Assembly: GCA_963819815.1 (NCBI GenBank)
Contig: CAWFXL010000001.1
Location: forward strand, 1,504,001 to 1,568,000
DNA from: an uncultured bacterium
Lineage (GTDB): Bacteria > Babelota > Babeliae > Babelales > Babelaceae
Length of the DNA: 64,000 bases
Reading direction: 5' to 3'
The number at the start of each line of letters is the position of its first letter. Within the stretch, counting starts at the first letter, position 1. The notes below the pieces were generated by a model that was not told where the DNA came from, searched no databases, and was given only the letters and a program-made list of their open reading frames with translations. Positions 1,609-63,297 of this stretch are shown here, piece by piece. The translations under genes were made by a program, and so were the position numbers.

Positions 1609-1823
1609 AAAAATTTGGCGCATTATAGGAATTTATAATGCGCCAAATTTTTGAATCTTTTTGAAAATTTGGCGCATTATAAAAAATTTTCATGATTAAT
1701 CCTAATGATCCAACTTTTCATCCAGATCGTTATATCAGAGGGGTTGAAAAAATTTGGCGCATTATAGAGTTTTATAGCGCGCCAAATTTATCTATTGACT
1801 AAAGAATTTTGGCGCATTATAAT
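1609..1823. repeat. Six copies of AAATTTGGCGCATTATA: two 17-6-17 palindromes and two half sites; putative operator array
   Basis: Palindromes at 1611-1650 (perfect) and 1750-1789; half sites at 1665-1681 and about 1805-1821. Confidence 0.9.
1795..1823 (+). promoter_or_regulatory. sigma70-type promoter of the AAA ATPase gene
   Basis: TTGACT (1795-1800), 17 bp spacer, TATAAT (1818-1823); the last repeat copy overlaps the spacer and -10 box. Confidence 0.8.
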
Positions 1824-1840: not shown

Positions 1841-3289
1841 ATGAGGGAGTCTATGATTATCGGAAGAAAAAGGGAAATAAGGCAGCTTGAAAGAGCATAC
1901 ACTGACAAGAAAGCACATTTTATAACGGTGTATGGTCGAAGGCGGGTTGGAAAAACCTTTCTCGTAAGGGAGTTTTTTTCAGAAAAAGAATGTACTTTTT
2001 TTCATGTAACCGGCGTGCACAAGGAAAAATTAGCAGCACAACTTGAAAATTTTGCTCGCTCAATGAGTAAGACTTTTTTTGCACAGGGTCCTTTGAGGGA
2101 GCTTTCTAATTGGAAGGATGCTTTTGATCTTCTTGATAGAGAAATTGCGCAAAGGCAAGGTAAGATAGTTCTTTTCTTTGATGAGCTGCCCTGGCTTGCT
2201 ACACCTCGGTCGAATATAATGGGGCAGATCGATTTTTTCTGGAATAATCGTTGGTCGGGCATGCCGAATGTTATTCTTATTGTGTGTGGTTCATCGGCAT
2301 CTTGGCTACTTAATAATATCATATACCACAAGGGCGGATTATATAATCGTACGACCACAGAAATACAATTAATGCCATTTGATTTGCACGAGACCGCTGA
2401 GTTTTTGCTCAGCAAGAAAATAAAGCTTGCTCATGAACAGGTTCTGAAGTTGTATATGGCTGTAGGTGGTATTCCCTTTTATTTGGATTATGCGGAGAAG
2501 GGATATACAATCCAGCAAATTATTCAGCAACTTTTTTTTGATGTTCGGGCACCTTTAAAAAACGAATATAGAAAATTGTTTGAATCTCTTTTTAACACAG
2601 CTGAAGCCTATCGGGAGCTTGTGGAGATTGTTGCTCGAAAAAAAGATGGTCTAGAGCGTTCTGAAATTATTAAGGAAGCGCAGTTTTCCACTGGAGGCCA
2701 TTTGACCCGTAGACTCAAGAGTCTCTGTGATGCAGGTTTCTTAAAAGAGTTCACTCCCTGGGGGAAACAGTACCAGACCTACTATAAAGTTATCGATGAA
2801 TTCTGTCTTTTCTATCTACGTTGGATAAAAGATGAGAACCATACTTTTGATCCAGATCATTGGATATTGCAGAGTCGGAGTCCTGCATATTATGCCTGGG
2901 CAGGGTATGCCTTTGAGTCGGTGTGTATGAAGCATATCTATCAGATCTCAAGGGCACTTGGCATAAAAACGGGGATAAAAATAGGGTCCTGGAAATATAT
3001 TCCTTCGGGGAATGAAGACCACGGCGCACAAATTGACCTGGTTATAGAGCGCGTAGATGATGGGATAAATCTTTGCGAAATTAAATATACGGAAAAACCA
3101 TTTTCCATTGATAAAAAATATGCAACAGAGCTTACCCATAAAGTAGAGCTCTTTACAAAAAAAGAACATAGTAAGAAACAAGTATTTCTTTCGATGGTTT
3201 CTGCAGGTGGACTAGCGAAAACAATGTACTCTGAAGAACTTGTGAGTGGAGTGGTAACACTTGACGATCTATTTAGATCACTTGGATAA
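1841..3289 (+). CDS. AAA+ ATPase (archaeal-ATPase/ATPase_2-like) with winged helix and C-terminal PD-(D/E)XK nuclease-like domain
   Basis: Walker A GRRRVGKT, Walker B FFDELPW, CGSS, GGIPFYL, wHTH-like segment, C-terminal QIDLV...LCEIKY. Confidence 0.85.
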   Translation: MRESMIIGRKREIRQLERAYTDKKAHFITVYGRRRVGKTFLVREFFSEKECTFFHVTGVHKEKLAAQLENFARSMSKTFFAQGPLRELSNWKDAFDLLDREIAQRQGKIVLFFDELPWLATPRSNIMGQIDFFWNNRWSGMPNVILIVCGSSASWLLNNIIYHKGGLYNRTTTEIQLMPFDLHETAEFLLSKKIKLAHEQVLKLYMAVGGIPFYLDYAEKGYTIQQIIQQLFFDVRAPLKNEYRKLFESLFNTAEAYRELVEIVARKKDGLERSEIIKEAQFSTGGHLTRRLKSLCDAGFLKEFTPWGKQYQTYYKVIDEFCLFYLRWIKDENHTFDPDHWILQSRSPAYYAWAGYAFESVCMKHIYQISRALGIKTGIKIGSWKYIPSGNEDHGAQIDLVIERVDDGINLCEIKYTEKPFSIDKKYATELTHKVELFTKKEHSKKQVFLSMVSAGGLAKTMYSEELVSGVVTLDDLFRSLG

Positions 3290-3395: not shown

Positions 3396-3471
3396 GGGCC
3401 CATAGCTCAGCGGTTAGAGCAATCGGCTCATAACCGAGAGGTCCCAGGTTCAAATCCTGGTGGGCCCACCA
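3396..3471 (+). tRNA. tRNA with CAT anticodon, probably tRNA-Ile2 (lysidine)
   Basis: Cloverleaf with GGGCCCA/TGGGCCC acceptor, loop CTCATAA, TTCAAAT T-loop and encoded CCA; anticodon arm TCGG-CTCATAA-CCGA resembles Ile2. Confidence 0.9.
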
Positions 3472-3492: not shown

Positions 3493-4209
3493 ATGCAAAA
3501 TGAACAGGTGGCAGCTTTTATTGAGCTTGTTGAATTAGATCAACGGCTTAGTCGCCTTTCGCGGCAGCAGGAAGAAGATGTTGCAAAAAAGGATACGCTA
3601 CTTAAGGAGATCGAACAGATCGACAAAGATGTTGCGCATGCTGATAAGGTCGTTCATGATACCCAAAAAAAGATGCATGAGCTTGAGCTTGATCTAAAAA
3701 CTATCGATCGCAACCTTGCCCGAACACAGGAAAAACTTTTGAGCGCACATTCTCAAAAAGAGCTCGATTCATTGGAGCATGAGAAAACCGATCTTGAAAA
3801 CAAGCGAGAATTACGGGATGAGCAAGGACTCGTGCTGCTTGAAGAATTAGAGCAGGCTCGAGCACAAGCTGTAAAGCTTCGTGCCAAAGCACCCGAAGCC
3901 CATCAAGAAAAAAAACAGGAACTTACAGCGCTTACTGAGCAGATGGACAAGCTAGAAATATCTCGATCAAATCTTAGTGCTCGCCGTGATGAGCTGGAAT
4001 TAACCGTCGATCAAGAGCTTTTGAGCCGTTATGAAACGATGAAGAAAAAAATTCCCAACCCGGCAGTTCCCCTACTTAACGAAAGCTGTTCTGGTTGCTT
4101 CTATTCCTTAACACCGGCTGAATTGAATCCACTTCGACAAGTAAAGCTTGGTGTCTGTAAAGGTTGTTATCGTACCATCTATATAACAAAGGGAACTGAT
4201 GGAGAATAA
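3493..4209 (+). CDS. Coiled-coil protein with C4-type zinc ribbon (DUF164/CT398-like)
   Basis: Long coiled coil, then CSGC...CKGCYR; start moved to ATG 3493 because the longer ORF overlaps the tRNA. Confidence 0.85.
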   Translation: MQNEQVAAFIELVELDQRLSRLSRQQEEDVAKKDTLLKEIEQIDKDVAHADKVVHDTQKKMHELELDLKTIDRNLARTQEKLLSAHSQKELDSLEHEKTDLENKRELRDEQGLVLLEELEQARAQAVKLRAKAPEAHQEKKQELTALTEQMDKLEISRSNLSARRDELELTVDQELLSRYETMKKKIPNPAVPLLNESCSGCFYSLTPAELNPLRQVKLGVCKGCYRTIYITKGTDGE

Positions 4210-4678
4210 TGTGTTCCCAGAGCCAGGAAGGTGGGAGCTGTACGTAGATGGTGCCGCCCGAAATAATCCCGGACCTGCAGGCGCTGGATTTTATTTGTTG
4301 AAAAATGGCGTGTCAGTTGAAGAACAGGGAATGTTCTTAGGTAAAAAAACGAATAACCAAGCAGAATATTTGGCACTGTTACTGGGAATCTATTACGCTC
4401 AGCAACATATGGGGCCACGTGATACGCTTGTCATAAAAGCAGATTCGCAGCTTATGGTCAGACAGGTGCAGGGGATCTATAAAATAAAAAACAAGGAGCT
4501 AGCAAGAATACATGATGCGATTCGCTCTATGCTCAATGCCTTAAATTTTAAGATACAACATGTACCACGTGAAGAAAATAAAGTAGCTGATAAACTAGCG
4601 AATATAGGAATTGATAAAAAAATAAGAGTTCCCCATGAACTTCTCCTCGTTTGGCCGATATATGAAGATGCTTGGTAA
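4199..4678 (+). CDS. rnhA: Ribonuclease HI (archaeal/actinobacterial type)
   Basis: YVDGAARNNPGPAGAG, TNNQAEY, DSQL and HVPREENKVADKLAN motifs. Confidence 0.92.
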   Translation: MENNVFPEPGRWELYVDGAARNNPGPAGAGFYLLKNGVSVEEQGMFLGKKTNNQAEYLALLLGIYYAQQHMGPRDTLVIKADSQLMVRQVQGIYKIKNKELARIHDAIRSMLNALNFKIQHVPREENKVADKLANIGIDKKIRVPHELLLVWPIYEDAW

Positions 4679-5873
4679 CCTCTATGCAGGTATTCTGATT
4701 GCAGGAGCACTGGGCATGCAGGGTCTCCTTGCAGTACCACCTAAAAAACAGAAATTTGATTACTCCTTTAAGAAGTTAGCACAGGGTATCCCTGTTCGCG
4801 TGCTTCTTGAAGAAAGTGCCGCTAAGGATGTTGCATGGGAGCTGAATTCTGATGAAGGATTTGTGCTCTATGCGCCCACTTCAAAAGAGAAAACGGTACT
4901 CAAAAAGACCAAACTTCTGGTGACTCATAAAAAGGGTACTTTTTATTTGAATGGTCAGAAGATACATGATGCGCATATCTTTGTGCTTCCACTGCGAGGC
5001 TTGATTCGTCATGGAACGATTCCATATGACGGAGTTTTTTCTCTTACCAAGAGTAAAGAAGTTGCCTACTTAGTAAATCATCTTGATCTTGAAGAGTATC
5101 TTATGTCGGTGCTCCCCTATGAGAGTATGCCCGGTTGGCCCGATGAGGTTCAGAAAGCACAGTGTGTTGCGTCGCGTACCTATGCTATTCATAAAGTTTT
5201 AGAGCAACGTGAGCAAAAAAAGAATAATAGAGTAACGCATCCCTATGATATAAAAAGTACTCCGGCACACCAGGTGTACCGCGGTTATGAAAAAACGGCC
5301 TGTTTTAAGCATATTGTAGAAGCAACTCGTGATATTGTACTAGCCTATAATAACAAGCCGATTCTTGCCATGTTTGATACTGCCTGTGGTGGGGTTATTC
5401 CAGGGAAGAAAAAGGGCATTCACTTTGGTAAGGCGCCCTATTTAAAGCGCACCTATGCATGTAATTATTGTAATGAGCATCCTTACTATCGGTGGGAAGC
5501 ACAGCTTTCCTTTGCTGAGCTAGGAAAAAGTTTAGCAACGCTTTTGCCCGATCTTGGGCAGGTTCGTGATATTAAGATCGAATCGCATGATCCAGCCGGG
5601 ATTGTTCAAGCCATTAAAATTAGAGGGAGTCATGGGTGGGTTACGATTAAACCTTCCCAGTTGCGGTCGGTCTGCAAGAATTTAAGAAGCCTCTGCTTTA
5701 CGTTCTCAAAAAAAGGAAGATCGGTGCAAGTTTCTGGAAAAGGATACGGATATCACATGGGGCTCTGCCAATGGGGCGCCTATAATCTCGTAAAAAAAGG
5801 GTGGAACTATAAAAAGGTATTACAGTTCTACTATCCAAATACTACTTTTATGAAACTGAAAAGGTCAGAGTAA
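4662..5873 (+). CDS. SpoIID/LytB domain lytic transglycosylase
   Basis: VNHLDLEEYLMSVLPYE, KAQCVASRTYA, QVYRG, GYGYHMGLCQWGA and LQFYYP motifs; N-terminal hydrophobic segment. Confidence 0.9.
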   Translation: MKMLGNLYAGILIAGALGMQGLLAVPPKKQKFDYSFKKLAQGIPVRVLLEESAAKDVAWELNSDEGFVLYAPTSKEKTVLKKTKLLVTHKKGTFYLNGQKIHDAHIFVLPLRGLIRHGTIPYDGVFSLTKSKEVAYLVNHLDLEEYLMSVLPYESMPGWPDEVQKAQCVASRTYAIHKVLEQREQKKNNRVTHPYDIKSTPAHQVYRGYEKTACFKHIVEATRDIVLAYNNKPILAMFDTACGGVIPGKKKGIHFGKAPYLKRTYACNYCNEHPYYRWEAQLSFAELGKSLATLLPDLGQVRDIKIESHDPAGIVQAIKIRGSHGWVTIKPSQLRSVCKNLRSLCFTFSKKGRSVQVSGKGYGYHMGLCQWGAYNLVKKGWNYKKVLQFYYPNTTFMKLKRSE

Positions 5874-47730: not shown

Positions 47731-48501
47731 CTATACAGGTTCGATAAATATGGTGTTGCTCTGTAAAGCGCAGCTACAATATTTGTTAAATATATAGGCT
47801 TTCAGTGCATTCGCTATTCCCTGAGGAAATGGAAATTGGATGGAGAAACTACTTTCATCATCTGACGGAGTACAATCACCGTGAACGTTTATAAAAGCTG
47901 TAAATGTAGTGGTGCTTCGGAAAGCCGAAAATGTCTGCTGAAAGGGAGTTTTAGACACTTCTTTGAAGGTAGCTGTACTAACTTCAGGTGTGGGTACAAT
48001 TGCAAACTCAACGGGACCAGTATTTGTGGGGCTGCCACCTGGATTAACCACATCTAATGTGATGCATCCTTTCCCACCGCCAAGTGGCAATGAAGTAATG
48101 GTCATGCTTATTGTCTGGTTTGGGTTAGCTTCAGTAAAAGCCACTTCATATTCTATCCCTGGTGTGCCGCTAGAATCGGTTACAGTTAAATTAAATGAAA
48201 CACTATCACCTCCTGCATTTGTAGGTACATCGGTAAAGTTCGCTGTTACTCCAGTTTGGGGTGCTAAATCTGTGACAGGCGTGCCGTTGGCATTGGTTAT
48301 ATTATAGGTATATTGACCTGAAGAAGTAGGTATACCACCAGAGGCAGTTACTGATATATTTGCTGTTGGTACTAGAGCGTCCGGATTACTACACCCATTA
48401 GGACTGATAGTTATATTTTGGATAAATAGCGGCTGAGGACCGGTCGTTTGAGCAGCTATGCTGATAGGCATTGCGAGTAAGGTGAGTAAGAGTTTCTTCA
48501 T
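47731..48501 (-). CDS. Secreted Thr/Pro/Gly-rich beta-sandwich-like protein, array copy 1
   Basis: MKKLLLTLL signal; SGG.P...YTY...TVTDS (SprB/Ig-like pattern); ends NALKAYIFNKYCSC. Confidence 0.85.
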   Translation of the reverse strand: MKKLLLTLLAMPISIAAQTTGPQPLFIQNITISPNGCSNPDALVPTANISVTASGGIPTSSGQYTYNITNANGTPVTDLAPQTGVTANFTDVPTNAGGDSVSFNLTVTDSSGTPGIEYEVAFTEANPNQTISMTITSLPLGGGKGCITLDVVNPGGSPTNTGPVEFAIVPTPEVSTATFKEVSKTPFQQTFSAFRSTTTFTAFINVHGDCTPSDDESSFSIQFPFPQGIANALKAYIFNKYCSCALQSNTIFIEPV

Positions 48502-48555
48502 ACACTTCCTTTGAGTGAAATTATGGATTTTGATACATATTAATGCGTGTAAACT

Positions 48556-48585
48556 AACTTACCATAGGTATTTTTTGAAAAGCAA
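48556..48585 (-). promoter_or_regulatory. Representative conserved promoter of the array units (TTGCTT, 18 bp, extended -10 TGG-TAAGTT)
   Basis: Same element at 49575-49604, 50609-50638, 51641-51670, 52665-52694, 53619-53648 and 54806-54835. Confidence 0.65.
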
Positions 48586-48753
48586 CAATTTGTCCCTTAA
48601 GCTATCAGCCTTTCGTTGTATGAATCTCCCAAATATGTAAATCCTATTCCTAGGCTTGTTATTGATGCAATAGATGCTGGTGTCCTCTCTCAGGGAAAGA
48701 GGGGCGCTATAAGCACCCCTCCTAACAGATTCAAAAGTTACATTAAGCGTGCG

Positions 48754-49518
48754 CTAGGCAGCTGTAGGTGTTACTACCTTAACCGTACCGCTCTGTAAGG
48801 TGCAGCTGCAATATTTGTTAAAAACATAGGCCTTCAATGCATTAGATAGTCCTTGCGGAAACGGAAAATTGATTTTGAAGTCAGAAAAATCATGAGGGCA
48901 ATCACCTATAACAGTAACTTCAGCAGTGAGCTCTGTGCTCCCTGGGGTTGGGAAAGCAGAAAACGTCTGTTGGAAAGGCTCTTTGGTTATTGGTGTAGAA
49001 GCAGGTTCATCTTCGGTCGATGGGAAAATTGCAAAATGAACTTCGCCGGTACCTGTTGTGTTGCCAGCAGGATTAGTAACGAGTAAGGTAATGCAACCTG
49101 GACCAGAACCAAGAGGTAATGAGGTAATAGTCATACTAACTGATTTTGTGCCAGATTCAGTAAAAGTCACTTCATATTCTACTGGTGAGCCACTGTTTGA
49201 AGAATCGGTTACGGTTAAATTATAACTTGTACTGGTATCATCAAGACCTGTAGCGACGTCAGTAAAGTTCGCTGTTACTCCAGTTTGGGGTGAGCCTGTG
49301 ACAGCTGTGCCGCCGAGAGTAGCTAAATTATAGGTATATTGACCTTTAGAATCAGGAGTTCCACCTGTGGCGGTCACTGATATATTTGCAGTTGGTGTAC
49401 CAGTTGCTGGACACCCATTAGGACTGATAGTTATATTTTGGATAAATAACGGCTGAGGACCTACTTGGGCCCCAAGGCTAATATGCATTGCTAGTAATGT
49501 GAGTAAGAGTTTTTTCAT
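48754..49518 (-). CDS. Secreted array protein, copy 2
   Basis: Paralog; start at MKKLLL after an AAAGGAAG RBS; ends NALKAYVFNKYCSC. Confidence 0.85.
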   Translation of the reverse strand: MKKLLLTLLAMHISLGAQVGPQPLFIQNITISPNGCPATGTPTANISVTATGGTPDSKGQYTYNLATLGGTAVTGSPQTGVTANFTDVATGLDDTSTSYNLTVTDSSNSGSPVEYEVTFTESGTKSVSMTITSLPLGSGPGCITLLVTNPAGNTTGTGEVHFAIFPSTEDEPASTPITKEPFQQTFSAFPTPGSTELTAEVTVIGDCPHDFSDFKINFPFPQGLSNALKAYVFNKYCSCTLQSGTVKVVTPTAA

Positions 49519-49772
49519 ATACTTCCTTTGAGTACGATGGTGGGTTGTTTGATAGTTAGTAACGCTTTCACAGTAACTTACCATAGACATTTTTAAGAAA
49601 GCAACAATTTGTCATTTAAGATGGCAGGTTTTTGTTGTATGAATTAGCCACAGCTGCAAACCATTTTCCTAGGCTTGTGATTGACACAATGTATGCCGGT
49701 GTTCTTTCGCATGCAAAGAGGGGCGCTTATAGCGCCCCTCCTGACAGATTCAAAAATTACATTAAGCGTGCA

Positions 49773-50552
49773 CTAAACTGTAGGTGTTACTACCTTGACC
49801 GTACTGCTCTGCAAGGTGCAGCTACAATATTTGTTAAAAACATAGGCCTTCAATGCATTAGATAGTCCTTGCGGAAATGGAAATACGATTTTGAAGTCAG
49901 AGCCGCCAACAATATCTTCACAATCACCGACAACGGTAACTTCAGCCGTAAGTTCTGTGTTCCCTGGGGTTGGGAAAGCAGAAAACGTCTGTTGGAAAGG
50001 CTCTTTGGTTACTATTGCAGGAGTGGGTTCATCTTCGGTTGATGGGAAAATTGCAAATTGAACGTCACCGGTACCCGTTGTGTCGCCTGCAGGGTTAGTA
50101 ACGAGTAAGGTAATGCAGCCTGCATCACTGCCAAGTGGCAATGAATTAATGGTCATGCTTACTGATTTTGTTGCGGATTGGTTAAAAGTCACTTCATATT
50201 CTACTGGCGAGCCACTGTTTGAAGAGTCGGTTACGGTTACATTATAATTTATCGAAGCTCCTAATTTACCAGTAGGGACATCAACAAAGTTCGCTGTTAC
50301 GGCAGTTTGAGATGGGAAATCTGCAACAGGCGTACCGTTGAGATTGGTTAAAGTATAGGTATATTGACCTGAAGAATTAGGAGTACCACCTGAAGCGGTT
50401 ACCGATATAGTTGATCCGGAGAATGGATTTATTTCTCCATCAAAACACCCATTCGGGCTGAAAGTTATATTTTGGATGAACAACGGCTGAGGACCCACTT
50501 GTGCAGCAAGACTGATGGGCATTACGAGTAATGTGAGTAAGAGTTTCTTCAT
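49773..50552 (-). CDS. Secreted array protein, copy 3
   Basis: Paralog; same signal peptide and C-terminal motif. Confidence 0.85.
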   Translation of the reverse strand: MKKLLLTLLVMPISLAAQVGPQPLFIQNITFSPNGCFDGEINPFSGSTISVTASGGTPNSSGQYTYTLTNLNGTPVADFPSQTAVTANFVDVPTGKLGASINYNVTVTDSSNSGSPVEYEVTFNQSATKSVSMTINSLPLGSDAGCITLLVTNPAGDTTGTGDVQFAIFPSTEDEPTPAIVTKEPFQQTFSAFPTPGNTELTAEVTVVGDCEDIVGGSDFKIVFPFPQGLSNALKAYVFNKYCSCTLQSSTVKVVTPTV

Positions 50553-50805
50553 ACACTTCCTTTGAGTGAAATTGTGGATTCTGATACATATATTAACGTG
50601 TCTAAACTAACTTACCATAGACATTTTTTGAAAAGCAACAATTTGTCCTTTAAGATATCTGGTTATCATTTTATGAATTACCCACAACTGCGAACGATTC
50701 TCCAGGCTTGTTATTGGTGCACTATTAGTAGTGCATTTTTCTCATGCAAAAAGGGGCGCCGAAGCGCCCCTTTACTATCAAAAGAAATTAAATTATGCAG
50801 ATGCA

Positions 50806-51585
50806 CTAGGCTGTAGGTGTTACTACCTTAACGGTACTGCTCTGTAATGTGCAGTTGCAATATTTGTTAAAAATATAAGCCTTCAGTGCATTAGATAATC
50901 CTTGAGGAAATGGAAATACGATTTTGAAGTCAGCGACGCCATCGCCATTGTCACAATCACCGTCAATCGTAACTTCAGCGGTGAGCTCTGTGCTCCCTGG
51001 GGTTGGGAAAGCAGAAAACGTCTGTTGGAAAGGGACCTCGGTTAATGTCGTAGGAGTAGGCTCGTCCTCAGTAGATGGAAAAATTGCGAATTGAACTGGG
51101 TTAGGATTCGTTGTGTTGCCTGCAGGGTTAATAACGAGTAAGGTAATGCAGCCTGCACCACTGCCAAGTGGCAATGAATTAATGGTCATGCTTACTGATT
51201 TTGTTGCGGATTGATTAAAAGTCACTTCATATTCTACTGGCGCGCCACTGTTTGAAGAGTCGGTTACGGTTAAATTATAACTTGTAGGGTCTTCGTTAAT
51301 AGCTGTAGGGACATCAATAAAGTTTGCTGTTACTCCAGTTTGGGGCGAGCCCGTGACAGCATCGCCACTCAGGTCAGCTAAGTTATAGGTATATTGACCT
51401 TTAGAATCAGGAGTTCCACCTGTGGCGGTTACCGATATAGTTGATGCGGGGTGTGGATTTGTAGTTGCATTAAAACACCCATTAGGACTGATAGTTATAT
51501 TTTGGATAAACAACGGCTGAGGACCCGTCGTCTGAGCAACAATGCTGATAGGCATTGCGAGTAATGTGAGTAAGAGTTTCTTCAT
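50806..51585 (-). CDS. Secreted array protein, copy 4
   Basis: Paralog; start at MKKLLL; ends NALKAYIFNKYCNC. Confidence 0.85.
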   Translation of the reverse strand: MKKLLLTLLAMPISIVAQTTGPQPLFIQNITISPNGCFNATTNPHPASTISVTATGGTPDSKGQYTYNLADLSGDAVTGSPQTGVTANFIDVPTAINEDPTSYNLTVTDSSNSGAPVEYEVTFNQSATKSVSMTINSLPLGSGAGCITLLVINPAGNTTNPNPVQFAIFPSTEDEPTPTTLTEVPFQQTFSAFPTPGSTELTAEVTIDGDCDNGDGVADFKIVFPFPQGLSNALKAYIFNKYCNCTLQSSTVKVVTPTA

Positions 51586-51837
51586 ACACTTCCTTTGAGT
51601 GAAATTGTGGATTTTGAACATATATTAACGCGTTTAAACTAACTTACCATAGACATTTTTTCAAAAGCAACAATTTGTCCTTTAAGATATCAGATTTTTG
51701 TTGTATGAATCGCTCACAGCTGCAAACCATTTCCCTGGGCTTGTGATTGGTCAATATATGCAGCGGTCCTGTCTCATGCAAAGAGGGGCGCTTATAGCGC
51801 CCCTCCTAACAGATTCAAAAATTACATTAAGTGTGCA

Positions 51838-52608
51838 CTAGGCTGTAGGTGTTACTACCTTGACCGTACTGCTCTGCAAGGTGCAGCTGCAATATTTGTT
51901 AAAAATATAGGCTTTCAGTGCATTCGATAGTCCCTGAGGAAAGGGAAATACGATTTTATAGTCAGCAATTCCATCTTCGTCCGTACAATCGCCGTGAACC
52001 GTAACTTCAGCCGTAAGTTCTGTGCTCCCCGGAGTTGGGAAGGCAGAAAAGATTTGCTGGAAAGGCGCTTTGGTCAGTGTTGTAGGAGTAGGCTCGTCAT
52101 CGGTAGATGGGAAAATTGCAAAGTCAACTGTGCCAGTACCCGTAGTATTGCCTGCAGGATTAGTAACGAGTAAGGTAATGCAGCCTGCACCACTGCCAAG
52201 TGGCAATGAAGTAATGGTCATGCTTATTGTCTGGTTTGAGTTAGCTTCACCAAGAGTCACCTCATATTCTACTGGTGACCCAGTGCTTGAAGAATCGGTT
52301 ACGGTTACATTAAAACTTCTGGAGTCCCCGTCATTATCTAAAGGGAGATCAGTAAAGTTTGCCGTTACAGCAGTTTGGGGCTCTGGAGCAAATGGGCCAT
52401 CCAGTTCAACTAACGTATAGGTATATTGCCCTGAAGAACTAGGAGTACCACCTGAGGCGGTCACTGATATATTTGCCGTTGGTGTACCAGTTGTAAGACA
52501 CCCATTAGGACTGATAGTTATATTTTGGATAAACAGCGGCTGAGGACCCGTCGTCTGAGCAACAATGCTGATAGGCATTGCCAGTAATGTGAGTAAGAGT
52601 TTCTTCAT
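51838..52608 (-). CDS. Secreted array protein, copy 5
   Basis: Paralog; start at MKKLLL; ends NALKAYIFNKYCSC. Confidence 0.85.
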   Translation of the reverse strand: MKKLLLTLLAMPISIVAQTTGPQPLFIQNITISPNGCLTTGTPTANISVTASGGTPSSSGQYTYTLVELDGPFAPEPQTAVTANFTDLPLDNDGDSRSFNVTVTDSSSTGSPVEYEVTLGEANSNQTISMTITSLPLGSGAGCITLLVTNPAGNTTGTGTVDFAIFPSTDDEPTPTTLTKAPFQQIFSAFPTPGSTELTAEVTVHGDCTDEDGIADYKIVFPFPQGLSNALKAYIFNKYCSCTLQSSTVKVVTPTA

Positions 52609-52847
52609 TAACTTCCTTTGAGTAAAATTGTGGATTTTGAACATATATTAACGCGTCTATGGTAACTTTACCATAAGTGTTTTTAAAAAAGCAATCTTTT
52701 TTAACCTTTTGTTTGTGATTTCTTTTCTACAACCTCCCTCATATTCTTGAACTATTAAGATAATTTATATAGTTGCTAACCCAAAAGGGGCGCTTAAGCG
52801 CCCCCTACTTTTCAAAAATTAAATATGAATCCAAGCATACCAGTATT

Positions 52848-53567
52848 TCAGGATACCGGTATTGTATTACTGCTTAGATTGCAATTGCAATATTTGTTAA
52901 AAATGTACGCTTTCAAATCATTAGCATTTCCTTGCGGAAAAGGGAATTGTATTTCAAAGAAGCTTGTTTCGTTAGGAGCGCAGTCATTCTGGACTTCAAC
53001 TACTGCTGTAAGTGTCGATGTTCCGGGAGTGCGGAATGCAGCAAATTGTTGAGTGAATGGAGCAGGTATTTCTTTCCCATTTTGTGTGGCAATTACTTGA
53101 GAGGACCCAATGCCAACTATGGCCGAACCAGTTAGCTTTCCTCCGGGTCCGAAGACTTGCAAGGATATGCATCCTGGTGCATTGCCAAGTGGTAATGAAA
53201 TTATATTCATGGCTATTTGCAGAGTTTGAGAAACAGGAAGCACGAGCATAGTTGTTACAGTATTATTCGCTGAATCTGTTACTTGCAACGTTGTAGGCTC
53301 TTCTACAGGAACGTTTGCAAAACTGGCAGTTGGCACCGTTAATGGAGAACCACCGAAGGGTTTGTTTTCTACGAGTAATGTATACGTATAGGGAGGTTGA
53401 CCACCTGCAGCCGTTGCTAAGATGTTTGCCGTCGCTGCAATTCCTGGATTGGGATTGGCACACCCTTGAGGATTGATGGTAATATTTGAGAAATATAATG
53501 GTTGCGGACCCGACAGAGCAGCAAGGCTAGCAGGGAGCATAAGTAATGTAAGTAAAAGTTTCTTCAT
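52848..53567 (-). CDS. Secreted array protein, copy 6 (subfamily B)
   Basis: Paralog with AGGQPPYTY; ends NDLKAYIFNKYCNC. Confidence 0.85.
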   Translation of the reverse strand: MKKLLLTLLMLPASLAALSGPQPLYFSNITINPQGCANPNPGIAATANILATAAGGQPPYTYTLLVENKPFGGSPLTVPTASFANVPVEEPTTLQVTDSANNTVTTMLVLPVSQTLQIAMNIISLPLGNAPGCISLQVFGPGGKLTGSAIVGIGSSQVIATQNGKEIPAPFTQQFAAFRTPGTSTLTAVVEVQNDCAPNETSFFEIQFPFPQGNANDLKAYIFNKYCNCNLSSNTIPVS

Positions 53568-53739
53568 GAGTTTCCTTTTTGGTAAAATATGTTTGGCATG
53601 TAATACGCGTCATAAGCTAAATTACCATAAGCCTTTTTAAAAAAGCAACGATTTGCCTTTTTTTTTTACGAGCATTCTGTTGAAAGACTCAAAGCACATT
53701 TCGGTATGACCAGTGATAATACTAGATTTCTTGCTAACA

Positions 53740-53870
53740 CGAGGGACGCTAAAAATCCCTACCTATCTAAAAAAATATGATTAATCTATAGATGCTGAAC
53801 ACCTGACGATAAGTTGTATGGTAATTCTGTAAGGTGCTACCATACCACTTGTTACCTATATAAGCCTTCT
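53740..53870 (-). pseudogene. Degenerate remnant of an eighth array unit (C-terminal motif and terminator only)
   Basis: Minus strand 53868-53824 translates KAYIGNKWYGSTLQN (compare KAYIFNKYCSCTLQS); decayed hairpin at 53742-53760 with flanks homologous to 52770-52830. Confidence 0.65.
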
Positions 53871-54033
53871 GGGGCACAAGGAATGACTTTTGATTTTTCG
53901 TTCGTAATTTCTTTTTTAACCGCCATTGCACTCTTGAACTAGTAAGAGAGTTTCATAGAGTTGCGTAGCATAGGGGCGCTTAAACGCCCCTATGCTACGC
54001 AGAAAGAATGTAATGCAAGCAGGCGCAGTACTT

Positions 54034-54753
54034 TTAGGATACTGGTATTGTGTTTTTGCTTAGAGCACAGCTGCAATATTTGTTAAAGACGTATGCTTTT
54101 AAGGCATTAGAGATTCCTTGGGGAAAAGGAAATGTGATACTAAAAACGCTACTTGAACCAGTTGTGCAATCATTTTCGACTATTACTACTGCTGTAAGTG
54201 TCGATGTCCCTGGCGTTCTGAATGCGGCAAATTGCTGAATAAAAGGCGCGGGGAATAATTTCGCATTCGTTTCGGCAATTGGCAAAGAAGATCCAATGCC
54301 AACAAAAGCTGAGCCAGTAAGTTTTCCTCCAGGTCCGACAACTTGCAAGGTAAAGCAGCCTGGAGCATTGCCAAGTGGCAATGAGGTAATATTCATGCTT
54401 ACTTGCAGAGTTTGAGAAGTAGGAAGTGTAATGGTATTGGTTACAGAATTATTTGCAGAATCTGTTACCGTCAAAATCACAAGCGAGTTAACGGGGATAC
54501 CGGCAAAATTTGCAGTTGCCGTTGTTAACGGAGAACCACCGAAAGGCTTGCCTTCTACGAGTAATGTGTACGTATAGGGAGGTTGCCCACCTGCAGCCGT
54601 TGCTAAGATATTTGCCGTTGGTGCAAGTGCCGGGTTGGGATTGGTGCATCCTTGGGGGTTGATGGTAAGATTTGAAATATATAAGGGTTGAGGACCTGCC
54701 AGAGCAGCAAGGCTCATAGGCATGATGAGTAATGTGAGCAAAAGCTTCTTCAT
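54034..54753 (-). CDS. Secreted array protein, copy 7 (subfamily B)
   Basis: Paralog most similar to copy 6; ends NALKAYVFNKYCSC. Confidence 0.85.
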   Translation of the reverse strand: MKKLLLTLLIMPMSLAALAGPQPLYISNLTINPQGCTNPNPALAPTANILATAAGGQPPYTYTLLVEGKPFGGSPLTTATANFAGIPVNSLVILTVTDSANNSVTNTITLPTSQTLQVSMNITSLPLGNAPGCFTLQVVGPGGKLTGSAFVGIGSSLPIAETNAKLFPAPFIQQFAAFRTPGTSTLTAVVIVENDCTTGSSSVFSITFPFPQGISNALKAYVFNKYCSCALSKNTIPVS

Positions 54754-54839
54754 GAGCATCCTTTTTAGTAAAAACGTTTTTTAACAGAGAATAACTCGTT
54801 TAACCAAACTACCATAAGCATTTTTACAAAGACAAGACT

Positions 54840-56042
54840 TTATCTCTTATGTGTTACTGTACCTAAACTCTCGTAGGCCGCGAGGCTCGTCTCTGGATAG
54901 TAAAACTCTAGAATCTCCTGATGCGAGTAGCCCAGGTTTGCCATCACATAAGCTCCCCATTGGCATAACCCTATATGATGCCCATGACCTTTTCCATGTG
55001 CGTTAAGGATGCCATTCTGTGTAGAAATGCTGCAGCAGAGGCTCCGTATTTTAGGGAACAGCATTCTAAAGTCATGTGCACACATGAGGACGGTCTTTTT
55101 TGAACCGGTAAGCACTAGTTGTTGAGCAATACCCGCTTGATCAAATGACTTGATATGGATCTCTTTGAGCTGTCCAAGCGCCGGAAAAACTTTTTGCAAA
55201 GGACCTTCAAGCTCTTTGAGCGTATAGGTTGTTTTCCAGGTATACAAGGGTTGGTCTTTGCAGTGAGTACAGGCATAGGGCCTTTTTAAATAGGGAGCTT
55301 TTGTGTAGATCGATGATTTTTTTTCGGCAGGGATGATGCCGCCACATACGGCGCTATACATAGCAAGAATTGGCTTTCCGTCTTGCGTGATAATAATACC
55401 CTTGGTTTCATCTACGATTTTTTTAAGAGATGTTTTACATGCCTGGCCACGATAGACTTGGTCAAGTACGGTATTCTTGAGGTCGTAGGGCAGTGAGTCA
55501 TTTCGTTCTGATTGAATTTTGTAGACAGCATAGGTCCGACAGGCTATGCAGAGTGCTTTCTGCACCACATCGGGCCAACTTGGAATACTCTCGTAAGGAA
55601 GTACTGCAGCAATATAGTCTTCAAGGCCGATATGGTTTACTAGAGAAGCTCTTCCCTCATGATCATGGAGTGCACATGTTCCCTCATAGGGTATCGATTC
55701 AAAACTAATGAGTCCCTTACTCGGAATAAGGAAAAGCTGCTCACAGGGATATCGTTTTCCATTGGCGATAAAAGCTCCCGACGTACGAGTTACCAGAAGC
55801 TCTTTGTCATGTATGCGCTGTACCATCTTTGTGTGTGGATTATAGAGAAAGAATCCATGAGGGCTTGAAAAGGTCCAAGCGATTTCTCCAGAAGGCTTCT
55901 CTTGTAAAAGTACGCGTACCGGGTTGTCTAGATGCATCTTTTCAAGAGCCGATGCTCGAGTGCTTTTTTCTAGCGCATTTGTAGTTGTATATGAAATGGT
56001 CAGTAAAAGCAGGCATGCAATGTGAGCATGTGATAGCTTCAT
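54840..56042 (-). CDS. SpoIID/LytB domain lytic transglycosylase
   Basis: VNHIGLEDYIAAVLPYE, KALCIACRTYA, DQVYRG and GHHIGLCQWGA motifs; signal peptide. Confidence 0.9.
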   Translation of the reverse strand: MKLSHAHIACLLLLTISYTTTNALEKSTRASALEKMHLDNPVRVLLQEKPSGEIAWTFSSPHGFFLYNPHTKMVQRIHDKELLVTRTSGAFIANGKRYPCEQLFLIPSKGLISFESIPYEGTCALHDHEGRASLVNHIGLEDYIAAVLPYESIPSWPDVVQKALCIACRTYAVYKIQSERNDSLPYDLKNTVLDQVYRGQACKTSLKKIVDETKGIIITQDGKPILAMYSAVCGGIIPAEKKSSIYTKAPYLKRPYACTHCKDQPLYTWKTTYTLKELEGPLQKVFPALGQLKEIHIKSFDQAGIAQQLVLTGSKKTVLMCAHDFRMLFPKIRSLCCSISTQNGILNAHGKGHGHHIGLCQWGAYVMANLGYSHQEILEFYYPETSLAAYESLGTVTHKR

Positions 56043-56962: not shown

Positions 56963-58612
56963 TTACATTTTTTCAGGAGCACTGATTCCCAATAAATCGA
57001 AGCATGTTTTGAGGGTATGCTCAACAAGTTCAATAAGTATGAGACGTGCTCTGCTTTGTGCGACCTGATCGGTATCGATTACTTTGTTATGGGTGTAGTA
57101 GGCATGGAATGCCTGCGCAAGTTCTATCGTATAGTAAGCTAGCTGATGAGTTTGATAACTCTGCTGGATGCTTTCAAGGTGCTCCTTGAGTGATGCGATT
57201 TTCTTAAGAAGGAGCTGATCTGCAGGTTGAAGATTGTGTATATCTTCCGCTGATAGCTTATGGAATAGCTCGTGCTGGAGTGCTTTTTCACGGATGCTTT
57301 TTATTCGAACATAGGCATATTGTATATAATAGACCGGATTTTCATCGGTGTGCTTGAGTGCTAAATCAAGATCAAAATCAAGATGGGCATCCGCTTTTTT
57401 ATGCAGATAAAAAAAGCGTGCAACGTCAGTTCCTACTGTTTTAATAATATCTTCAAGGTTGACTATACGCCCTGCTCGTTTAGAGAGCTTCAGTGCGAGC
57501 CCGCTTTCTTTGACGGTTACTAATTGGTACAAGATCACATCTAATCGTTTTGGATCATAGCCAAGGACCTGCATAACCACTTTAAGTCTCGTAACATAGC
57601 TATGATGATCTTGCCCAAGCACGAAGATAAGATGATCAAATCCTCGAGCCACTTTGTCTTGTACATAGGCAATATCGGCAGCAATGTAGGTGAGCTCGCC
57701 CGTCTTTTTTCTGACCACACGATCTTTATCATCACCAAAAGTAGTTGATCGTAACCAGACGGTACCATCTTCTGTATAGAGGTACCCTGATGAGGTAAGC
57801 TGCTCAAGAACCTGATCTATGGCGCCGGTATCATGAAGAGTTTTTTCTGAAAACCATATATCGAAGGTAATACCATACTCAGCAAGGGTAGTAGTAATAT
57901 TTTTAAGAAGATGCTCTTTTGCATAGGAGCTAAAAAACTCATCAGTCTTTGAGAGAAGCTCAGTTCCATACGTATCATAACACTCTTGTGCTAATGCCAC
58001 TAAATATTCTCCTTGATAGCCATCTTCAGGAACTGCCATGTCATAGCCTGATACTTGCATGCAGCGTGCTTTAAATGAGAGACCAAGTTTGTGTATCTGG
58101 GCACCCGCATCGTTGACATAAAACTCTTTAACTACGGTGTGGCCAAGAAATGAGAGAATTCGTGAAAGGACATCACCAATGATGCCGCCGCGTCCATGCC
58201 CCACATGTAAAGGACCGGTAGGGTTAGCACTGACAAACTCAACGGAGTAGGACTGCTTAGGAGCTGGATTGCGAGAAAAAAAGAGTGCTCTGTCTTCATA
58301 CAGCTCTGTTGCGAGCTTCTTGAAAGCCTCTGGTGAAAGAAAGATATTCAAAAAGCCAGGACCTGCTATGTCTGCCCGCTCGATGTACGGATGTTTGAGT
58401 GCAGTGAGAATCTTTTGAGCAACAGCGCGAGGATTTTCGCCAAGCTCTTTGGCTATGATTAGAGCAGCATTTGAACTCAGGTCACCAAATTCAGACTTCT
58501 GCTTATCGGTATTAATCGTGAGCTGAGCTTTTTTAATGAGTTGAGCCTGGCTGCTAAAAAGGCTCTGTAGCGTATCGTGTAGGTGTTGACCGATCGTTTC
58601 GATGACATTCAT
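56963..58612 (-). CDS. argS: Arginine--tRNA ligase
   Basis: EFVSANPTGPLHVGHGR, NDAGAQ, KLSKRAG, NPVYYIQYAYVR and GISAPEKM motifs. Confidence 0.97.
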   Translation of the reverse strand: MNVIETIGQHLHDTLQSLFSSQAQLIKKAQLTINTDKQKSEFGDLSSNAALIIAKELGENPRAVAQKILTALKHPYIERADIAGPGFLNIFLSPEAFKKLATELYEDRALFFSRNPAPKQSYSVEFVSANPTGPLHVGHGRGGIIGDVLSRILSFLGHTVVKEFYVNDAGAQIHKLGLSFKARCMQVSGYDMAVPEDGYQGEYLVALAQECYDTYGTELLSKTDEFFSSYAKEHLLKNITTTLAEYGITFDIWFSEKTLHDTGAIDQVLEQLTSSGYLYTEDGTVWLRSTTFGDDKDRVVRKKTGELTYIAADIAYVQDKVARGFDHLIFVLGQDHHSYVTRLKVVMQVLGYDPKRLDVILYQLVTVKESGLALKLSKRAGRIVNLEDIIKTVGTDVARFFYLHKKADAHLDFDLDLALKHTDENPVYYIQYAYVRIKSIREKALQHELFHKLSAEDIHNLQPADQLLLKKIASLKEHLESIQQSYQTHQLAYYTIELAQAFHAYYTHNKVIDTDQVAQSRARLILIELVEHTLKTCFDLLGISAPEKM

Positions 58613-61284: not shown

Positions 61285-62727
61285 CTAAATTCTTTTAAAG
61301 AGGTCTTTTAACGTAACAACACCCGTGATCATTTTTTCGCTATAGATATTCTTCTTAACACCGCTAGCGCTAACCATAGCAAGAAATAGTTGTTTTTTAG
61401 AACCGGTTTGCTGCTGAAAGATTTTGAGTACGTTTTCGAGCTTCTCAGCATAACGCTTATCGATAATAAATGGCTCTTCGGTATATTTTATCTCGCACAG
61501 AGTAAGAGCATTGTCAGTTCTATCAATAATTAAATCGACCTGAGCACCATGCTCATTAACATTTGTTGGTACATAGCGCCACCAACCATAATACAGGGCC
61601 GGTTCGATATCGAGTACATCAAGTATAGTATCGATATGCTTCATACAAACTGCTTCGAAGGCATATCCTGACCAGGCGTAATAAGCTGGCTTTTGACTTT
61701 GCTTAAGCCAGTGCTGTGGCACAGCCTTTCTTCGACCATCTTGCGCGACCCATCTAAGATAAAATAAAGAAAATTCATCAATTACCCGATAGAATTCTCC
61801 CTGTTTTTTCTCCCACGAGAGGGCAGGTTCAATAAATCCTGCAGCACTTAAATCACGCAATCTTTGAGTAAGTCTCCCCCCGCCTCCTTCAGGAGTTTTC
61901 GTTTTCTTAGCCAAATCAGCTCTTTCAACGCCATCTTTTTTTTCAGCCAAAATTTTTATTATTTCCTTGTAGGGTTCAGCATCGTTAAATAATGATTCAA
62001 AGAGTTTATCAAACTCTCCTAGCAAGGGAGAGATGGGGTCAAAGAAAAGTTTCTGAATTGTTTGGTGTGCGCTTTTCCCCCGATCTACATAATTGAGATA
62101 ATAAGGAACCCCTCCAACAGCCATATAGAGCGATAACACCTGACTTTCGTTTAACGGCACTCCCTTATTTTCAAGAAACTCTTTGGTTTCAGATAAGCTA
62201 AATGGGTTAAGCTTAATCTCTACGGTCGTTCGATTGTGGAGACCTCCTGTGTTAAACAAAATTTTTTGTATGATCCAGGATGCGGAAGAGCCGCATACAA
62301 TTAATATAACATTGTGCATCTTGGACCAATAATGGTTCCAGTAATAATCTATTTCTTGTATCAGCCGGGATCTTTTTGCTGCTAACCAGGGAAGCTCATC
62401 CAAAAAAATGACAACTTTCCCCTCATTCTTAAGAATTTGTTCGTGTAGAAACCGAAATGCCAGAAACCAGTTAGCTGCAGGGATTAATGGAGCTCGCTCA
62501 AAAAAAGTATCCGATAATGCCTGGTAAAAGCCCTCAAGTTGCCGTTGCATATTTCCATGCTGAAGACCCGTCACCTCAAAGAAACGACACTCCTTTTGGC
62601 TAAAGAATTGACGGATAAGAAATGTCTTTCCTATGCGCCGACGCCCGTACATCGTAATAAATTGCGCCTTATCCGATTCAAAAGCCTTTTCAAGAAGCTT
62701 CCGCTCTTTTTTTCTGCCAACAATCAT
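61285..62727 (-). CDS. AAA+ ATPase with wHTH and PD-(D/E)XK domain, paralog of 1841-3289
   Basis: GRRRIGKT, FLDELPW, CGSSASW, GGVPYYL and QVDLI...LCEIKY motifs; colinear with 1841-3289. Confidence 0.87.
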   Translation of the reverse strand: MIVGRKKERKLLEKAFESDKAQFITMYGRRRIGKTFLIRQFFSQKECRFFEVTGLQHGNMQRQLEGFYQALSDTFFERAPLIPAANWFLAFRFLHEQILKNEGKVVIFLDELPWLAAKRSRLIQEIDYYWNHYWSKMHNVILIVCGSSASWIIQKILFNTGGLHNRTTVEIKLNPFSLSETKEFLENKGVPLNESQVLSLYMAVGGVPYYLNYVDRGKSAHQTIQKLFFDPISPLLGEFDKLFESLFNDAEPYKEIIKILAEKKDGVERADLAKKTKTPEGGGGRLTQRLRDLSAAGFIEPALSWEKKQGEFYRVIDEFSLFYLRWVAQDGRRKAVPQHWLKQSQKPAYYAWSGYAFEAVCMKHIDTILDVLDIEPALYYGWWRYVPTNVNEHGAQVDLIIDRTDNALTLCEIKYTEEPFIIDKRYAEKLENVLKIFQQQTGSKKQLFLAMVSASGVKKNIYSEKMITGVVTLKDLFKRI

Positions 62728-62757
62728 TGCACACTCCTCAACATGCTCAGTGGTTGA

Positions 62758-62786
62758 AGGATAAAGAAATCTCAAGGTGTAGTCAA
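62758..62786 (-). promoter_or_regulatory. sigma70-type promoter of the second AAA ATPase
   Basis: Minus strand TTGACT (62786-62781), 17 bp spacer, TATCCT (62763-62758). Confidence 0.6.
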
Positions 62787-62790
62787 GGGA

Positions 62791-62953
62791 AAACTAGGAC
62801 AAATATAAAAAATTATAATTGTCCTAGTTTAAAAAATCGTGAGAAAATAGGGACTTAGATTCTTTATAAATGGCTTACTAGTAAGGGTTTTTAAAGATAT
62901 GCGATCCGCTCCTCTTTGGGGACAAATATAAAAAATTATAATTGTCCTAGTTT
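62791..62953. repeat. Two 17-6-17 palindromes AAACTAGGACAAATATA-AAAAAT-TATAATTGTCCTAGTTT; putative operators
   Basis: Copies at 62791-62830 and 62914-62953, with 34 identical bp; the first abuts the -35 box. Confidence 0.88.
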
Positions 62954-63297
62954 CGAATCGCGTGCTTGTGATTTTTAAATATGCGATCCAAAGTACACAT
63001 CAGATTTTTCATAGGTGTTATAGGCCCATCTGAAGGGATTTTTAACATAAGGCTTCGAAGGAGGCTGCAACTCTTTTGGATTGCGGAGGAAGATTAGAAT
63101 AAGGGATACTTTACGACGATAATTACGCTCATACTGGAGAAGAAAGACGGTGCTCGCAGGTTTTTTTTATGTGTGTAGTGGGTTTATGGTTGGTAATGAA
63201 TACCAGCTATAGAGAATGATTTTGCGCGCCAGGAGTAAATCGCGAATGTGGTTCTTTTTTTTAGTGTCTGTGTTATGATACTAGCCATAGAAGCATC

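Follow-up and report, generated by a model that had tools for sequence, protein, structure and literature searches.

Palindromic arrays upstream of PDC-S27 ATPase genes are probable private operators of the genes they precede

Introduction

Two paralogous genes lie 60 kb apart in a 64,000-nt stretch of the chromosome of an uncultured Babelaceae bacterium (the window: GenBank assembly GCA_963819815.1, contig CAWFXL010000001.1, positions 1,504,001 to 1,568,000 of the forward strand), and each is preceded by long palindromes that share one geometry and differ in their core bases. Both genes encode an ATPase with a predicted winged helix-turn-helix (wHTH) and a C-terminal PD-(D/E)xK-like domain. 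What reads these palindromes, and why does their core change from one copy to the next? Comparison of the two loci with their homologues suggests, with a probability that we put at roughly 70%, that the protein uses its winged helix to bind the palindromes upstream of its own gene, each of them occupied by two subunits, and so limits its own transcription.

Both window proteins belong to PDC-S27, a family of single genes that combine an ATPase with a PD-(D/E)xK domain. One survey counts 4562 bacterial and 3503 archaeal instances and, in the passages devoted to the family, describes it by abundance, phylogeny and ATPase and PD-(D/E)xK content (PMC12988326). In the part of a preprint that reports phage challenges, one PDC-S27 representative was assayed in E. 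coli B against T7, T5 and T4, and the four systems described as protective do not include it (bioRxiv 10.1101/2024.09.26.614923). The main text of the preprint that introduced the embedded-candidate approach contains no mention of S27, DUF234 or a winged helix, and in the literature on DUF234, PF01637/PF03008/COG1672, PDC-S27 and DUF4143 we found no operators, autoregulation or DNA-reading winged helix for the family. An earlier reading of the window (the original prediction) had called this family uncharacterised; it is already a PADLOC candidate defence gene, and the description stands only in that no mechanism is known for it.

Results

Paralog 2 (480 aa; 61285..62727, minus strand) was assigned by translation, Pfam ATPase_2 and PADLOC PDC-S27 matches, and an AlphaFold model. 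It most likely starts at the ATG at 62727, which is served by a putative ribosome-binding site, GAGGAG, and agrees with homologues that begin MI[IV]GR, rather than at the TTG at 62775. A sigma-70-type promoter, TTGACT-N17-TATCCT (62758..62786, minus strand), is predicted from a 9/12 consensus match only. Its -35 box TTGACT (62786-62781) lies 4 bp from the predicted proximal operator at 62791..62830, a 17-6-17 palindrome (two 17-nt arms around a 6-bp spacer) with left arm AAACTAGGACAAATATA and right arm TATAATTGTCCTAGTTT, 16/17 complementary and centred at about -60 relative to the inferred start site. The predicted distal operator, 123 bp beyond (62914..62953), is degenerate: a perfect half-site at 62937-62953 faces a decayed partner, in which the inner 11/17 bases of the left arm are kept (GGACAAATATA) and the outer six (CTTTGG) are unpaired. 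Two full 17-6-17 palindromes had originally been proposed here. The proximal one holds, and the distal one is better described as a 45-nt direct repeat of the proximal element (62797-62841 vs 62920-62964, 89%). A further repeat that had been noted is real at 83% over 18 nt (GGATCGCATATCTTTAAA on the minus strand, 62890..62907, compared with 62972..62989); its 11-mer, present twice, is not significant alone (at least two copies in 24/100 shuffles). These two stretches are the 5′ ends of the proximal and distal copies of an operator-bearing unit of about 82 nt, tandemly duplicated with a 41-nt indel.

Paralog 1 (1841..3289, plus strand; translation, Pfam and PADLOC) is 53% identical to paralog 2, and translation may in fact begin at its second ATG (1853), which is the start position of homologues. 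Its upstream region holds four elements. The predicted distal operator (1611..1650) is a perfect 17-6-17 palindrome with arm AAATTTGGCGCATTATA, a 6-bp spacer and pairing that extends the arms to 19 nt. A perfect lone half-site on the plus strand follows (1665..1681), 54 bp past the first arm of the distal palindrome. The proximal palindrome (1750..1789, 15/17) lies 139 bp from the distal element and 5 bp upstream of the -35 box TTGACT (1795-1800) of the predicted promoter, TTGACT-N17-TATAAT (1795..1823, plus strand, 11/12 consensus matches). The fourth element is a second lone half-site (1805-1821, one mismatch) that supplies the spacer and the -10 box of this promoter. The arm, its spacer and, at both loci, the placement of one palindrome 4-5 bp from the TTGACT box with a second element 123-139 bp further upstream agree with the original description; the two lone half-sites are additional.

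The consensus shared by both loci, AAAYTWGGNNNATTATA, is matched with at most one mismatch eight times in the 64-kb window, against 0.20 expected (eight were reached in 0/100 shuffles), and all eight matches are confined to the two upstream regions. A window-wide scan for the geometry found seven centres with at least 14/17 complementarity, four at the two loci and the others at unrelated hairpins. The repeated sites are therefore restricted to each gene's own promoter region, where the operator of paralog 2 abuts the core promoter without overlapping it. A terminator-like flag also falls on the distal palindrome of paralog 1 (1607-1654; a 20-pair stem with five G-C pairs, then a T-run) and stems from the A/T tract at the end of the half-site. 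The element may have a second role as a weak terminator of the solute-binding-protein gene that lies upstream (186-1301).

We then compared the window with homologue loci, taking the best 80 of 578 relatives in reference genomes (36-56% identity), which sample Gammaproteobacteria, Legionellales, Chlamydiota, Rickettsiales, Bacteroidota, Bdellovibrionota, Myxococcota and others. When the best palindrome in the 200 bp upstream was scored at 78 loci with at least that much sequence (two were excluded), 45/78 reached a score of at least 12. The same score was reached in 0/78 and 0/78 windows inside the gene, 0/68 far upstream, 6/74 downstream and 0/78 shuffles. With the geometry fixed (positions 4-20 from the dyad, at least 13/17 complementary, within 300 bp upstream), 60/77 loci were positive, compared with 2/80, 1/80, 1/68 and 1/70 control windows and 8/74 downstream windows. 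Palindromes of the kind that the original prediction expected upstream of homologues are thus common across the sampled relatives. The subfamily is conspicuous in protist-dwelling lineages, namely Legionellales, Chlamydiota, Rickettsiales, Holosporales (a Paracaedimonas plasmid) and the Dependentiae/Babeliales-like host of the window, a pattern that hints at exchange among amoeba-associated bacteria.

Aligned by distance from the dyad, the half-site reads from an A/T-rich outer part through T17, three variable bases, G13, C12 and three further variable bases to T8-TATA and a 6- or 7-bp centre. G13 is present in 42/49 loci and C12 in 46/50; the inner TTATA is also conserved, its TATA columns being partly imposed by the selection rule for 42 of 50 loci. 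The usual distance between neighbouring palindromes is 50-56 bp, and as many as four are present, in locus L011. The clade of the window proteins departs from this spacing, at 139 bp for paralog 1 (locus W1), 141 bp for its sister locus L005 and 123 bp for paralog 2 (W2). In L001, L004 and L006 the sole strong forward promoter (11/12) takes its -10 box from the inner TATAAT of the proximal left arm, and therefore the operator spans the start site. W1 likewise uses an arm TATAAT as the -10 of its sole strong forward promoter (11/12).

Four distant plasmid relatives at 21-26% identity (Haloferax, Bacteroides, Vescimonas and Mesorhizobium) have no family-type palindrome at threshold, and we therefore limit the claim to the sampled subfamily, at about 34-56% identity. 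Plasmid relatives among L082-L085 adjoin partition genes: ParB in Malaciobacter pAMYT (34% identity), ParA in Haloferax and Bacteroides, and ParM in Vescimonas (these three at 22-26%). This could be coincidence or a tie to plasmid maintenance or anti-plasmid functions. The Malaciobacter locus (L082, 1240-1500), whose protein has GAK for GGR/T at the helix start, carries GTGAAATCTTATA half-sites around a centre of about 10 bp instead of 6-7, and is a spacing variant of the same palindrome arrangement. Separately, the homologue reading frames of L076, L040 and L027 halt early (125, 243 and 410 aa) and may be pseudogenes or assembly frameshifts; L076 and L040 retain well-formed operator arrays.

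The sites are closely tied to their own gene. When each locus was searched for its own 13-nt half-site core, at most one mismatch being allowed, 13,348 bp of upstream DNA gave 154 occurrences and 347,515 bp elsewhere gave nine, all of which are array extensions (L017, L040) or a duplicate array before a truncated gene copy (L015). Among neighbouring open reading frames of at least 80 aa, the largest conserved cluster comprised 2/77 loci upstream and 3/77 downstream; among small frames of 35-110 aa it comprised 4/82. These counts support the earlier proposal that the family travels as self-contained modules, and they reveal no separate linked transcription factor, which would have spoken against it. 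Arms within a locus differ at 2.0/13 positions, whereas consensus sites of different loci differ at 7.1/13, and co-resident paralogues in four genomes differ in their cores at 5/12, 5/10, 5/11 and 3/8 positions. Single-linkage clustering of site specificities was dropped, as 36/50 loci chained into one cluster. In L015, a second operator array with a 54-bp period lies about 1 kb upstream (1370-2160) and is followed by a 203-aa open reading frame; the pattern of a 75-aa frame followed by the main frame is repeated, which suggests a tandem duplicate of the operators and the 5′ part of the gene.

If the protein reads these sites, its DNA-reading residues should change with them, as the original prediction had proposed for the core bases and the wHTH. 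Half-sites in a common register were obtained from 50/82 loci, 42 through a TATA rule and eight added manually on the strength of a matching dyad register and G13-C12; one spurious centre was left out. Removal of the interrupted loci L027, L040 and L076 left 47 rows, and the tree was built without winged-helix columns. Plain mutual information (31 loci) was discarded, since clade effects dominate it and base 19 correlates with many AAA+ columns, and was replaced by independent-pair tests on the tree.

The pairing that emerged joins base 11 to residue 286, which directly follows the invariant G284-G285 where the predicted recognition helix begins. Arg286 occurs with C11 in 14/14 loci of the first set and Thr286 with T11 in 6/7, the latter pairing recurring in several separate clades. 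In the window, paralog 2 combines Arg286 with core bases GGACAA, and paralog 1 combines His286 with G11 in GGCGCA. Independent pairs of 286R and C11 numbered seven, with 5.5 the same way and 0 opposite (median p 0.031); those of 286T and T11 numbered six, with 4.4 the same way and 0 opposite (p 0.125). In a phylogeny-aware scan of all protein states with enough variation (about 1017 for each DNA trait), 286R ranked 1 of 1017 for C11 (5.5 vs next 3.9) and 286T ranked 1 of 1016 for T11 (4.4 vs next 4.3). A held-out Paracaedimonas plasmid homologue (L081) has Arg286, TTGCCAC half-sites and TATA-N7-TATA at the dyad.

Paralog 2 comprises an AAA+ ATPase (about 1-175), a lid (179-247), a wHTH (252-316) and a C-terminal PD-(D/E)xK-like domain (about 340-480). 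The only Pfam domain in a full-length scan is the N-terminal ATPase_2 (PF01637), with E 1.2e-19 in paralog 2 and scores of 71.5 and 77.5 bits for the two window proteins against a gathering cut-off of 33.2. NCBIfam models gave no match, and the Cdc6/ORC Pfam families do not match them. The PADLOC PDC-S27 hidden Markov model PDLC04984 covers residues 3-478 of paralog 2 with profile positions 4-473 of 474 (E 3e-165) and matches paralog 1 end to end (E 3.7e-169). The family includes at least 5967 proteins at E <=1e-3 among 8000 candidates; among the matches listed, most are 52-60% identical to the query and three are closer, at 83-95%.

Across 24 sequences the Walker A residues G29, R30, R31, R32, G34, K35 and T36 and the Walker B residues D111 and E112 are invariant. 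D399, E413 and K415 are also invariant, lie on strands of the C-terminal alpha/beta domain and fit the D...E-x-K signature. The DUF234 family (PF03008), present in some close relatives, scores 23.4 bits in the C-terminal part of paralog 1 and 16.9 bits in that of paralog 2 against a cut-off of 22.5, and is counted as a PD-(D/E)xK family in one passage of a survey (PMC3424549). The domain is thus a putative PD-(D/E)xK-like nuclease.

An AlphaFold model from 24 homologues (predicted local distance difference test, pLDDT, 88; predicted TM-score, pTM, 0.87) shows an AAA+ base, a helical lid, a wHTH and the C-terminal alpha/beta domain of 140 aa. The modelled wHTH consists of helices 252-262, 270-276 and 284-297, then a beta wing. 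The two peptides first singled out as differing recognition helices, GGRLTQRLRDL in paralog 2 and GGHLTRRLKSL in paralog 1, are both present and coincide with the third helix (284-297), the predicted recognition helix. A two-copy homodimer prediction scored 0.00, gave no answer and is counted neither way. The leading Foldseek matches are 2qen and 2fna, both archaeal ATPase_2 proteins; Orc1/Cdc6 proteins and STAND NTPases come next.

Discussion

These observations support a new regulatory arrangement, predicted here by sequence comparison, for a widespread and unexplained ATPase-nuclease family that is already listed as the PDC-S27 candidate. The gene would be a single-gene module in which an AAA+ ATPase is fused to a wHTH and a PD-(D/E)xK-like domain. 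One subunit would bind each half-site of about 17-20 bp, which combines the conserved inner TTATA, the conserved G13-C12 and variable bases that would set a specificity private to each member. Most members of the family have at least two palindromes, 50-56 bp apart, with the proximal one over the -10 box and start site, so that binding would repress the gene (negative autoregulation). At both window paralogs the centre of a retained palindrome is about 60 bp before the inferred start site, and paralog 1 also retains a half-site inside its core promoter. The variable core would give each copy a private operator, so that co-resident paralogues do not interfere. Since the site sequence changes together with the DNA-reading helix, each copy most likely represses itself through that operator. 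Repression rather than activation is what we infer from promoter overlap, as is the orthogonality of the window pair from their differing cores. The DNA looping raised in the original prediction gains no support here; the family spacing of about 55 bp (about five helical turns) suggests side-by-side occupancy of one DNA face, not loops.

Several observations weigh against self-repression through the winged helix. At the fixed-geometry threshold 17/77 loci have no palindrome, and several of the palindrome-negative loci still show repeated words. A promoter within an arm (at least 9/12) is not specific to proximal sites, occurring at 11/50 proximal and 5/26 distal ones, partly because TATAAT is built into the arm. 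Paralog 2 has its full operator at about -60, clear of the core promoter, a possible position for an activator as well. The equivalent winged helix of STAND/Apaf-like relatives serves oligomerisation and does not read DNA. The second candidate contact in the covariation analysis, 270R with G14 (four pairs, three the same way, 0 opposite), is not significant and ranks 7th, and the outer half-site bases 15-20 found no convincing protein partner in the scan. Winged-helix columns are not enriched overall, with 5 of the top 25 mutual-information columns against 61/374 tested and, by our own tally, 12/72 states in the top-8 lists of the state scan. The covariation draws on 44-47 loci and essentially one strong residue-base pair, and we regard it as supportive rather than conclusive.

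The alternative that fares best, although unlikely, is that the arrays are iteron- or origin-like platforms on which an ORC/Cdc6-like AAA+ oligomer assembles or is loaded, any effect on transcription being a by-product. Such a platform could help a small mobile module to replicate or be maintained, or could park and control the nuclease. Orc1/Cdc6 proteins bind inverted repeats beside their own gene, in the origin recognition box (ORB) arrangement. The fold of the window proteins, closest to archaeal ATPase_2 and Orc1/Cdc6 proteins, is in keeping with this, as are the regular 50-56 bp period with up to four palindromes in L011, the AT-rich dyad centres, the varying neighbours expected of a mobile cassette and the ParA, ParB or ParM genes beside distant plasmid relatives. 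Against it, the sites abut or overlap the gene's own promoter, and no repeats flank its 3′ side. The window copies stand among housekeeping genes with no integrase or replication genes nearby, the two share one chromosome, and neither matches a Cdc6/ORC Pfam family.

A related proposal, which we also rate as doubtful, is that the array acts as a resident decoy of target DNA, or as an ORC-like platform that holds an inactive, promoter-bound ATPase-nuclease oligomer; titration would induce the gene and free a sequence-directed nuclease. The protein would be drawn off its promoter by invading DNA that carries such sites, or when the bound state is lost in an infection. If this were true, the family would be a set of naturally diversifying, programmable, site-specific ATP-dependent nucleases, with a recognition code (Arg286-C11, Thr286-T11) readable from the DNA upstream of each gene. 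A blastn comparison of both window operators with phage and plasmid collections returned only AT-rich chance matches (best E 0.09). The decoy idea is therefore without support, although the collections probably contain no phages of this host group.

It is less probable still that a separate, unlinked transcription factor binds the palindromes and that the ATPase has no specific DNA binding. Binding by the ATPase is itself predicted from sequence comparison, and the equivalent winged helix of STAND NTPases is known not to read DNA, which leaves room for such a factor. No conserved neighbour gene of any size was found, however, and the sites travel with the ATPase gene across phyla and onto a plasmid. 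Base 11 covaries with ATPase residue 286 at rank 1 of about 1017, and, as the sites of co-resident paralogues differ, a separate unlinked factor would be required for every one of them. Least probable of all is that the palindromes are nucleic-acid hairpins (an upstream-gene terminator, an attenuator or a cruciform) instead of protein sites: arm complementarity is maintained while the sequence changes, and the palindromes of L004, L006 and the distal one of locus 1 are flagged terminator-like because the arm ends in a T-run, but partnerless half-sites are conserved (1665-1681, 1805-1821; L005), specific bases and not pairing alone are kept (G13, C12, inner TTATA), the sites lie upstream of the predicted -35 so that most would not be transcribed with the gene, upstream neighbours occur in either orientation (49 plus, 28 minus), and no Rfam family falls at the sites.

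The predicted self-repression has parallels in several known systems. Restriction-modification controller (C) proteins are small stand-alone HTH regulators of their operons that provide autoregulation of a potentially toxic nuclease gene; their C-boxes are paired palindromic operators at their own promoter, and their specificity groups diverge without cross-talk. Unlike C proteins, the window family would carry its DNA-reading domain inside the ATPase-nuclease, and its operators are longer (about 40-45 bp) with a period of about 55 bp. Plasmid Rep iterons are regularly spaced direct repeats before rep that mediate autorepression and double as the replication origin, whereas the sites of the window family are inverted pairs in chromosomal, non-replicon contexts.

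Orc1/Cdc6 proteins resemble the window proteins in placing a winged helix after an AAA+ base and lid (the DNA-bound 2qby_B and 2v1u_A, and 1fnn_A; E 6e-9 to 1e-8), with low TM-scores of 0.31-0.33 normalised to the query and 0.40-0.41 normalised to the target; a sequence search of the PDB returned no Orc/Cdc6 chain at E up to 0.01. ORBs are long polar sites of about 20 bp, arranged as inverted repeats round an AT-rich centre beside the protein's own gene. The window family differs in its extra C-terminal nuclease-like domain, promoter-overlapping sites and two copies per chromosome, with no origin function indicated. The best structural matches are PAB2304 (2qen) and SSO1545 (2fna), with E 3.3e-12 and 3.2e-9 and target-normalised TM-scores of 0.62 and 0.63; 2qen is also the only clear sequence match in the PDB (E 5.4e-4). 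Each has about 350 aa and no C-terminal nuclease-like domain, and their entry titles name no function or DNA site.

STAND NTPases (MalT, CED-4/Apaf-1, plant NLRs and Avs3; Foldseek matches 8bob_C, 2a5y_B and 8dgc_A) share the NTPase-helical-winged-helix core, and Avs proteins pair an NTPase core with a nuclease effector. The winged helix of STAND proteins works as an internal switch, and DNA reading in MalT falls to a separate LuxR-type HTH. The window proteins, in contrast, have no repeat-type sensor (TPR, WD40 or LRR), and no repeat family matched them.

PDC-S27 is among the most frequent candidate defence genes, and anti-phage defence is a candidate biological role for the ATPase-nuclease; operator arrays that suggest sequence-specific DNA binding would offer a first mechanistic handle on it. 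Tight self-limitation of a potentially toxic ATPase-nuclease is predicted and, if native self-regulation matters, expression context could affect heterologous phage tests. Residue 286 against base 11 provides a directly testable recognition rule, and dozens of apparently orthogonal protein-operator pairs may be usable as genetic parts. The ORC/Cdc6-type AAA+ theme, a winged helix that reads inverted repeats by its own gene, would be extended to bacterial single-gene modules. ORC/Cdc6-clade NTPases with fast-evolving winged helices are proposed, in a 2026 preprint that concerns ParA-linked immunity, to sense invader DNA (10.64898/2026.10.19.760177).

Other features of the window

Both copies are embedded in housekeeping genes (argS, a P-type ATPase, a histidine phosphatase, SpoIID and dnaE), and neither sits in a defence island. 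Relatives of the window's ArgS (56963-58612) that bear a name belong to Candidatus Dependentiae / Babeliales, at 56-61% identity, and a Dependentiae/Babeliales-like host is therefore the most likely; a chlamydial host, which a CT398-like neighbour had suggested, was given up. An Rfam scan of the window found only five tRNAs, none at the palindrome sites; one tRNA gene (3396-3468) lies 107 bp downstream of paralog 1. Among the unrelated hairpins, a perfect GC-rich one (53957-54002, 17/17) downstream of the minus-strand reading frame 54034-54759 is ordinary and terminator-like. Seven tandem minus-strand frames (47731-54759) of 239-278 aa, without a Pfam family and two of them with sub-threshold SprB-repeat matches, look like a lineage-specific paralogue array. 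Two SpoIID-domain genes are present, at 4635-5873 (plus strand) and 54840-56042 (minus strand), and the first of these is overlapped by an RNase H-like gene at 4199-4678.

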